DNA of 64,000 bases. It comes from Lytechinus pictus. Lineage: Eukaryota. The position numbers and the translations under genes are program-made. Shown here piece after piece: positions 55,601 through 57,515 of this stretch. The stretch's first letter is position 1. Each line of letters begins with the position of its first letter. The stretch spans positions 4,528,001-4,592,000 of the forward strand of contig NC_087252.1 in the NCBI RefSeq assembly GCF_037042905.1, read 5' to 3'. The notes beneath the pieces were generated by a model. That model was not told the DNA's origin and searched no databases. It saw only the letters and a program-made list of their open reading frames with translations.

Positions 55601-57515
55601 CTGACATTTACCTTGCTCAGTTTGACCATGATCAATCATAGATCCCTTAACTCTGTTGAGCATTGTTATCTCTGACGGATGAATCTTGCTTCCTGATACC
55701 TGGGCAACTTCTCCACTGCCCGTGCCTACCACAGGCAAAACATTCGTCGGTGGTCTGAAGCCACTTGCATACCCGCGCCAACTATATTGTACATATAAGT
55801 TGGCGACACTGCCAAGCGAATATCGATTTCTTGACCCAAAGGCTGCGAAATAAGTTGTCGGAAGTAGTAGAAGAACCTTGAAAATTTCCAACATTCTTGC
55901 CCAATATAACCCTCATTTGTTGAACGAAATACCTATACGCTTTCTATTTACACAAGCCTGAGCTTGCCTCATTCTTTTCTCCCTCATCAGAGTCGCATGT
56001 TATTAATTAAGTCACTCAAGTATTCATCCACTGCGGACCAACCTAAAATATAAAAATGATCTCTTTATATTTATTTGATTGATCTCCCATAATTAAGTCC
56101 AAGTAATTCCGCTGAAAAACGAACATCTTCCATTAACAACATAAGGCCATATCTATTATGTACAACCGTTCATAAATTTCAAAAGCAATAGCCTAGTTTG
56201 GAATTTTCATTCATCTTTATCTCACTAACCTGCTTCAGATCCATCTGCTTTTCTGATATGTTTCTTCCTTTTTGTTATATCTGCAATACCTTCCTTCAGC
56301 AAAGCAAGGGCTGCGCCCGCTGCTTACCTTACTCTAATAAGGCCAATTTTTTATCCAACTCCTCCTGGCGTCTAGAATTATATTCATATTGTACCTTATT
56401 ACCTTTCGAAAGACATCTCCGACACCCTTTTTTAGTTGTAGAAGCTCCGCTGACCCGGGCAGTGAATCAAGAATCAACATAATCAAACAGCCAGCCCAAT
56501 CTTTAAACGAGCCAATGCTTCATTTGTAGCATTGCTTACAAGAAGGCGAAGGGACTCCAGATTATTGAGTAGAATTTTCTGAAAATGCCTTTAATTTGTG
56601 GCCTAACCCGAGGTTAATTTCTTGATTCGCCATTATTTTATATTTAACGTCGAATCCAAACGTAGATCTATTACGATAAGGCCTATAGAGTTTAACACGT
56701 GGAAGAAGCGTTGATAAAAAGACGTCCGTACTGTGCTGTGTCGAACTCGGTCAGTGAATTCCGAATCGTTTAGGAATTCAGACACTCCTCACGCAAGCAT
56801 TGTTATGCTAATCGGATACTTCTGCTAAGAAAAGAAAATGTATCTAACACCAGAAAGGTATTTGTACAACACCAATTAGTATTAAAACAGCATCGGTTTG
56901 ATTCCAAACTGGTTTTTGTTTTAATACTTATCTGGTGTGAACATATATAGATTCCGGGCTGGTGTTAAATCAACACCGGAGTTTTTGCAGTGACAGACTA
57001 AAAGCAAAAGGTAAAGTAAACTCGGAAAAGTGGTGATGGTGTCTGTAGGACGCATTTGTTAGCATCCTGATTTGTATAGGCCTACTCGGTTGATTTATCT
57101 CGACCCTTTTCTTGTGGAAACTTACTTTTATAAATTTTGAATATGAGTATGATAAGATGATCTTACCCTTTTTAATAAGAGATCTGGAGTCATCAGCCAA
57201 TAAAGCTTCGTCGATAGTATCGTCATCCCATAAAGTTTCGTCGATGGTATCGTCATCCCATAAAGTTTCGTCGATGGTATCGTCAGTTAATAGAGTTTCG
57301 TCGATGGTATCGTCAGTCAATAGAGTTTCGTCGATGGTATCGTCATCCAGTAAAGTTTCGTCGATGGTATCGTCATCCCATAAAGTTTCGTCGATAGTAT
57401 CGTCAGTCAATAGAGTTTCATCGATAGTATCGTCATTGTTACTGAGACTACGACCACTCGTGATCGAAGCGAAATCCACCAGAAGACACAAGACTGCAAT
57501 AACTTTGGGTGACAT
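45690..57515 (-). CDS. Putative secreted peptide precursor (signal peptide, acidic repeat pro-region, 4-Cys C-terminal peptide), about 146 aa
   Basis: Exon 57516-57167: acceptor ttggtttgcag, ATG at 57515, MSPKVIAVLCLLVDFASITSG, 8 x DDTIDETLxx, phase-1 donor G|gtaag. Exon 45781-45690: strong acceptor tttttctttctctcaacag, phase 1, reading VFRRSGTRHYRKVCQRTNCTSDCDLCINIG*, with AATAAA at 45627-45622. Joining the two exons across 11.4 kb is inferred. Confidence 0.65.
46427..48988. mobile_element. hAT-type non-autonomous element with nested insertions
   Basis: TIR cagggacctgggaa / ttcccaggtccctg; perfect 8-bp TSD cccccaca; contains a TTAA-family MITE fragment (about 47190-47662) and a MITE at 48217-48750. 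Confidence 0.8.
48217..48750. mobile_element. GC-rich MITE with ccccggggggggcactc TIR
   Basis: TIRs visible; flanking duplication tgctgc. Confidence 0.8.
51468..52437 (-). pseudogene. Tyrosine recombinase (YR) of the retrotransposon, disrupted
   Basis: Catalytic motifs YAGFLRFDE, KSKTD, TCPV, HSFRSGGATAAA, HGRWRS, DGY. In-frame TAA at 51686-51684 between the two listed ORFs. The N-terminal domain (SRADT..SKYNRALNIWRDWC..YLIHL) is frameshifted. Confidence 0.9.
53144..53881 (-). CDS. RNase H C-terminal part plus DIRS-type DNA N6-methyltransferase-like domain (remnant ORF)
   Basis: SSTWRELK, VKVFCDN, WVPREENRFADALSR (RNase H), followed by RFADDFN...FNSKFW...VDSFSCNWSGENNWLVPP...GTLVVPFWPSAPFWP (MT-like domain typical of DIRS-group pol). 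Confidence 0.85.
   Translation of the reverse strand: MVKSSTWRELKSVSMALRTFASHLRHKTVKVFCDNKGVESIVNKGNMIAELHEMSLHSFDLCKRNHISLHVHWVPREENRFADALSRIIDFDDWGVSDEFFGFLDKIWGLHTVKRFADDFNFKIKKFNSKFWCPLTGHVDSFSCNWSGENNWLVPPIECIGQVLKHLKVRSARGTLVVPFWPSAPFWPILFSEQSDFRSLISEYFKIDNPQGIFVQGRNKQQQKKSIFGTKKFQSPVLCLRLNGL
53882..55250 (-). pseudogene. Degenerate reverse transcriptase / RNase H N-terminal part
   Basis: Frameshifted fragments LVKGRL, DPDFVSEAINELL, VNPLS, KRLIL, LKQGYHH, GFSW, VLPLG, HWRRNGIFIALYIDD, VSARKIVVIVGKI, FIYSDASPSGCG. Interrupted by a SINE at 54080-54268. Confidence 0.85.
54080..54268 (+). mobile_element. tRNA-derived SINE inserted in the RT region
   Basis: B-box gggttcgattccc; 7-bp TSD acattat (54073-54079 / 54269-54275); second copy of its 3' part at 57680-57793. 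Confidence 0.8.
55646..56633 (-). pseudogene. Degenerate gag-like ORF1 of the YR retrotransposon, interrupted by an intron at 56229-56043
   Basis: ATG at 56633 (aaataATGgcg). Fragments KGNKVQYEYN, KRKKHIRKADGSEA|GWSAVDEY, DSDE..EKRMRQA and a decayed zinc knuckle ECFACGRHGQWRSCP. Several frameshifts and stops. Confidence 0.75.
57195..57434 (-). repeat. Coding minisatellite, 8 x 30 bp (DDTIDETL[L/W][T/D/A])
   Basis: Directly visible 30-bp period (gtttcgtcgatggtatcgtca core). Confidence 0.95.

Follow-up and report, generated by a model that had tools for sequence, protein, structure and literature searches.

A probable spliceosomal intron in the gag gene of a Pat1-like retrotransposon family of Lytechinus pictus

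Introduction

Goodwin and Poulter are said to have reported in 2004, in Mol Biol Evol, spliceosomal introns inside tyrosine recombinase (YR) retrotransposons. The genome studied here offers a measurable case of how retroelements keep introns through the RNA step. Penelope-like elements keep introns after retrotransposition, the significance of which has been called unknown (PMC8557442). In retroviruses and in Gypsy elements such as Cer1, the unspliced RNA is the genome and spliced RNAs occur beside it (PMC10309623). In DIRS-1, a reporter intron near the 5′ end was found partly unspliced in cDNA; in the authors' reading, splicing factors and retrotransposition factors compete there (PMC7192593).

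The echinoderm-form Pat1-like elements (SpPat1 type, PAT group, DIRS order; PMC4157794) are described with a gag zinc knuckle, RT/RNase H with a methyltransferase-like tail, YR, and split repeats A1...B1A2B2 after YR. The same arrangement is seen in family A, the subject of the present study, except that the match to a methyltransferase-like tail is weak. The account of Pat1-like elements in PMC4157794 makes no mention of introns, whereas in family A gag and the frame leading into pol are each split by a predicted intron. Ngaro elements are described as having no methyltransferase domain (PMC9210276), whereas family A shows a weak Dam match, under the cut-off, at the expected place. No open paper was found that describes introns in the gag of PAT elements or the loss of such introns, and an earlier description is possible; the word "intron" is absent from PMC3783388, PMC4157794 and PMC3266345.

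Results

The window, i.e. the whole stretch of 64,000 nucleotides that was analysed, carries on its minus strand an element which, from its layout and domains, is placed as a decayed Pat1-like YR retrotransposon of family A (Table 1). Split direct repeats A1...B1A2B2 are present in this element and in family A, with the internal pair after YR. Gag exon 2 overlaps the +1 frame leading into pol and contains a C-x2-C-x4-H-x4-C zinc finger (zf-CCHC E 0.006, under the Pfam cut-off). Another family-A copy, L051, is 9% from the window copy; it has open frames for pol (729 aa) and for YR (331 aa), its gag is broken only by intron 1, and Pfam matches to RVT_1 (4e-15), RVT_3 (1e-8) and Phage_integrase (3e-9) were obtained. 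The Dam match after RNase H is weak (E 0.014 in L051 and 0.003 in L058, both under the Pfam cut-off), and PF05869 is carried by several pol homologues. Judged from the frameshifts and stops in its gag, the window copy cannot make Gag, which only other copies could supply.

Table 1. Positions in the window of the family-A element and its parts.
Feature	Position	Strand	Remarks
Whole element, family A	50610..56842	-	full length ~6.2 kb, exact termini
Repeat A1, 5′ split direct repeat	56716..56846	-	98% to A2
gag exon 1	56230..56633	-	frameshifts and stops in window copy
Intron 1 (predicted)	56043..56229	-	187 nt, GT-AG, phase 1; splits conserved Gag motif at Gly codon
gag exon 2, decayed	55647..56042	-	acidic and basic stretch, CCHC zinc knuckle
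Intron 2 (predicted)	55457..55611	-	phase 1 to phase 1; acceptor AG lost in window copy
pol remains, decayed	53144..55456	-	RT, RNase H, weak methyltransferase-like tail
pol-linker site matching phase-2 donor	55262..55273	-	first intron base 55270; altered in window copy
Foreign insertion in pol, ~200 nt	54077..54279		88 nt recur at 57680-57767
Pyrimidine tract and AG acceptor ending 52438, then decayed tyrosine recombinase frame	51468..52438	-	
Repeat B1	51080..51251	-	
Repeat A2	50953..51083	-	
Repeat B2	50609..50780	-	identical to B1, including 4 variants private to window copy

Several other features were seen in and around the window element. The foreign insertion in pol ends, by eye, in a tRNA-like stretch, recurs in part 3.5 kb away, and is possibly a SINE. 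Short palindromic repeat arms (50516-50588 and 56920-56992; 73 nt, 90% complementary) flank the element; because other copies have other flanks, this palindromic repeat is the insertion target. Just upstream of the element, positions 56970-57569 of the minus strand resemble a host exon whose start is signal-peptide-like and which holds seven Asp-rich repeats of 10 aa; a Pfam search gave no match for it. A 40-nt GT..AG stretch inside the B repeats (51150-51190 and 50680-50720) is too short to call an intron, and in L051 this stretch is 12 nt shorter in B2 than in B1.

An earlier note on this DNA had proposed that a spliceosomal intron of 187 nt lies within gag, and sequence comparison bears the proposal out. 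On the minus strand the segment starts with GTTAGT and ends with TTTTAG, its length is not a multiple of 3, and it has the U2-type features of GT-AG ends, a consensus-like donor and a pyrimidine tract. Its AT content is 71%, compared with 57-62% for four stretches of coding sequence in the element. Reading through it brings a gag stop one codon past the donor, and its retention removes the zinc knuckle from Gag. The donor motif alone is unremarkable, since MAGGTNAGT occurs 5 times on the two strands of the window and 3.5 times in shuffled sequence; what counts is its place exactly where gag homology stops. As the motif by itself is not rare, the case rests on comparison. When the two gag halves of L051 were searched separately, 0 nt lay between the matches at 5 intron-less loci of other families. 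The Gag motif given in the note is real, and in the alignment runs continuously across the junction in intron-less relatives.

The presence of the segment was examined across the genome, where the family-A search gave 40 scored matches of 65 candidates. L106, which had no family match, was left out of the family-A counts. All 30 loci fetched keep intron 1. Among the 39 longer copies examined, 3 were without the region, and in the remaining 36, with both flanking exons, GT..AG is kept without exception, the segment being 177-246 nt long with fixed ends; the check proposed in the earlier note, whether all copies keep the intron, thus came out in its favour. With exact patterns, the gag exon end followed by GTTA was found at 64 places in the genome (control, 1), and followed by another base at 3 places, namely one family copy with a 3-nt donor insertion and two unrelated loci. 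No intron-less family-A copy, and no exact loss of intron 1, was found at up to 65 places, a count that does not take in copies altered within the 14 bases of the exact patterns. It is therefore the sister family B described below, and not intron 1 itself, that gives the direct sign of splicing.

Divergence was compared between exons and intron in three close copies and L051. Exon 1 has 2.7-4.7% substitutions and no gap, exon 2 has 3.9-4.5% substitutions and some gaps, and the intron has 7-11% substitutions with indels, its lengths being 177 nt versus 234-237 nt. In five more diverged or dead copies, including the window copy, exons and intron have much the same divergence and gaps; the missing contrast is as expected in dead copies and gives no support.

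The same segment could in principle be an insertion that is never spliced, which made a 5-nt target duplication and killed the gag of the founder, the family then using the Gag of another family. A direct repeat, AGGTT, does stand at both ends of the segment, which fits a target duplication and also an intron at an AG|GT site, and most copies are dead and were probably moved in trans. There are, however, no terminal inverted repeats; the best in intron 1 are of 9-10 nt, not terminal and not common to copies. All 40 scored segment matches (of 61 candidates) lie at family sites and none at unrelated sites. Gag exons are open, and exon 1 is gap-free, in L051, L052, L091 and L092, the same break is found in Diadema-type elements at 77% identity, and the donor ranks among the two best of the element. 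No copy of the family without the segment was found. In copies where the segment is 189 nt long, a multiple of 3, a stop is still reached just after the donor, so that there is no in-frame read-through. An origin as a dead insertion thus appears extremely improbable.

The intron-1 site was also compared with other species. The closest Gag proteins come from Diadema, at 72-77% identity, and from Lytechinus variegatus, at 98% over part of the sequence. In ENA gene calls of the Diadema cluster, P0009 ends and P0008 and P0010 begin at the intron-1 site, a break which would be what an intron-blind caller gives on unspliced DNA. RefSeq models, themselves predictions, join the gag halves, in Diadema (XP_072166153.1 and others) and in Lytechinus variegatus (XP_041484375.1). 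Compared with P0001-P0007, L051 is 72-77% identical in Gag and 79% in YR, and is closer to Diadema than to other families of its own genome, which may reflect old vertical descent or horizontal transfer. Two Diadema antillarum models, P0002 and P0014 (XP_071504484.1 and XP_071504442.1), have gag exon 1 joined to a host SLC23 transporter at the intron-1 donor, possibly through exonisation or as a modelling artefact.

Family B is a sister family in the same genome, with about 41% RNase H identity. Eleven copies are known from the search, in which all 11 candidates were scored. Nine of them have a gag intron of 147 nt (76% AT, GT-AG; 3138-3284 in L057) at a site in gag other than that of intron 1; the introns of both families precede the zinc knuckle and bring an early stop if kept. 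In the other 2 of the 11 copies the intron is absent exactly at the splice sites, and both are nested among intron-bearing copies. A loss that is exact at the GT-AG ends is what reverse transcription of a spliced RNA is expected to leave behind. The DIRS-1 reporter assay relies on exact intron loss as its mark (PMC7192593). Between L057 (with intron) and L058 (without) there is not one substitution in about 5.1 kb, and the two have 4 exclusive variants in common. The family-B tree needs two changes, and a single clade of the intron-less copies is rejected (p-AU 0.002, tested without the intron columns). Because all sites grouping L057 with L058 lie 3′ of the intron, one loss together with recombination is possible instead of two losses. 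In the two intron-less copies the gag, pol and YR frames are open.

An intron that is spliced could also persist with no choice of template, through slow or inefficient splicing in the germ line, or through intron-less copies being poor founders. The visible rate of loss in family B (2/11) is in keeping with such persistence, as is the partly unspliced reporter intron of DIRS-1 (PMC7192593). Against it stand the open frames of the two intron-less family-B copies, by which loss does no immediate harm, the lack of any loss at up to 65 places in family A, and the finding of intron 2 in 35/39 copies, the other 4 lacking a flank. Persistence of this kind is regarded as unlikely, and preferential copying of unspliced RNA is favoured over it.

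Family B also differs in layout. Its internal B1A2 repeats lie between pol and YR (L057-L062, L065, L107-L110), which is the nematode-form of PMC4157794, beside the echinoderm-form family A in one genome. Directly before the full element at L057, positions L057:1621-2552 hold a partial permuted copy (repeat A and spacer, a deletion, YR end and repeat B), which may come from a circular or tandem intermediate. L066 and L067 belong to a further family, DIRS1-like and unrelated, which looks young; it has inverted terminal repeats, and its open frames are long and overlap.

In family A, B1 equals B2 in 16 of the 19 copies with both repeats, compared with 20% of between-copy pairs, and private variants common to B1 and B2 were found in 3 copies; the window copy has 4 such variants. 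PAT and Ngaro elements are modelled as having their repeats rebuilt during reverse transcription (PMC6681497). The matched repeats fit that model; gene conversion is also possible. These repeats bear on whether copies of a real intron might instead have spread as DNA, by excision and insertion through the recombinase, with no RNA step to remove it. The element does encode a tyrosine recombinase, and L057 does adjoin a permuted partial copy. Spread as DNA seems very improbable nonetheless: the private variants common to B1 and B2 fit repeat rebuilding (PMC6681497), the exact intron losses of family B need an RNA step, and an open RT frame is kept in L051.

A weaker donor at 55611 with an acceptor at about 55280 had also been suggested in the earlier note, as a bridge from gag to pol. 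The donor is real and conserved; the acceptor lies at 55457, and one near 55280 is unsupported, the region matching a donor instead (55270). The bridge itself fell away, as intron 2, which starts 35 nt past the gag stop, joins to pol, in better-preserved copies, not gag but the +1 overlapping frame. In L051 it is 158 nt long (3444-3601), and its phases join the frame overlapping gag exon 2 to pol. The acceptor AG was lost in the lineage of the window copy. An intron occupies this position in family D too, and the L. variegatus isoform models of that family are spliced there.

Expression of YR was then considered. No start codon precedes the conserved N-terminal motif of YR, and the frame is preceded by a pyrimidine tract and AG, each in 5/5 elements scored. 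In family A this acceptor has phase 2, and a donor of that phase in the linker of pol matches it (junction L051 3771/6429); the same linker donor is used in the family-D models of L. variegatus. Of the 120 pol homologues listed, 27 could be scored, and 12 of these have a protein motif that fits the linker donor; of 3716 background windows, 22 have it. Splicing of the linker donor to the YR acceptor is predicted for family A on the basis of the phase match and the related-family models. In families B and C the donors and the YR acceptors that match one another are of phase 1. Two other donors were rejected for family A: one just after the pol stop (L051 5759), conserved but out of phase with YR, and a common gag donor, whose phase 1 does not match the phase 2 of YR. 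A 670-nt AT-rich spacer between pol and YR (52439-53122; L051:5759-6429) begins with this conserved donor-like site, which is out of phase with YR.

Most copies of family A are dead. Twelve copies of one subfamily are only 0.17-0.94% apart and have no stop-free frame >181 aa, and they lie at different sites with the same termini. Because they are near-identical with broken frames, at different sites and with the same termini, these dead copies were likely moved in trans.

Discussion

We consider it likely, from the sequence comparisons, that intron 1 is a spliceosomal intron, probably inherited because the templates of reverse transcription are mostly unspliced RNAs, whereas the proteins come from predicted spliced RNAs. 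Gag would be made from RNA spliced at intron 1, and Pol from the overlapping +1 frame once intron 2 has been removed; for YR, a longer splice would pass over RT. If YR is made by splicing out pol, the element would already have to use unspliced RNA as its template so as not to lose RT, and new introns could ride along as passengers of this bias. As the proteins would come off spliced RNAs and not off the template RNA, they would act in trans, and dead copies such as the window copy could spread. The bias would be leaky, because of the exact losses in family B. The suggestion in the earlier note of an unspliced genomic RNA beside a spliced gag mRNA is supported in this way at the level of the family; it does not extend to the window copy, whose gag is broken.

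A wider reading is put forward tentatively, as a possibility that falls somewhat short of probable. It supposes two RNA pools: an unspliced RNA that encodes no complete protein and is picked by the copying machinery, and spliced RNAs from which Gag, Pol and YR are made. Under such a scheme coding introns would be gained independently, as at two gag sites in one genome, and dead copies would easily be moved in trans.

The two families provide a contrast in which one has no loss at up to 65 places and the other has exact loss in 2/11 copies, including a substitution-free pair. The predicted splice map gives exact junctions, and may account for the expression of the start-less YR and the overlapping pol frames and for the excess of dead over open copies. 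There is a warning here for annotation too, as curation based on open reading frames would call such elements broken.

With the YR-retrotransposon introns reported in 2004, the present case has in common spliceosomal introns in a YR retroelement; the retention counts, the exact losses and the independent gag gains come from the present analysis. What appears new, as read from sequence, is the independent gain of gag introns, their exact loss, and an arrangement that would require splicing for each of Gag, Pol and YR. Penelope-like elements belong to another RT clade with another integration route, and their intron is in the 5′ UTR, in contrast to the coding gag of family A (PMC8557442). Retroviruses and Gypsy elements also differ, in that their unspliced RNA encodes Gag and Pol as well, whereas the unspliced RNA of family A would encode neither full Gag nor Pol.
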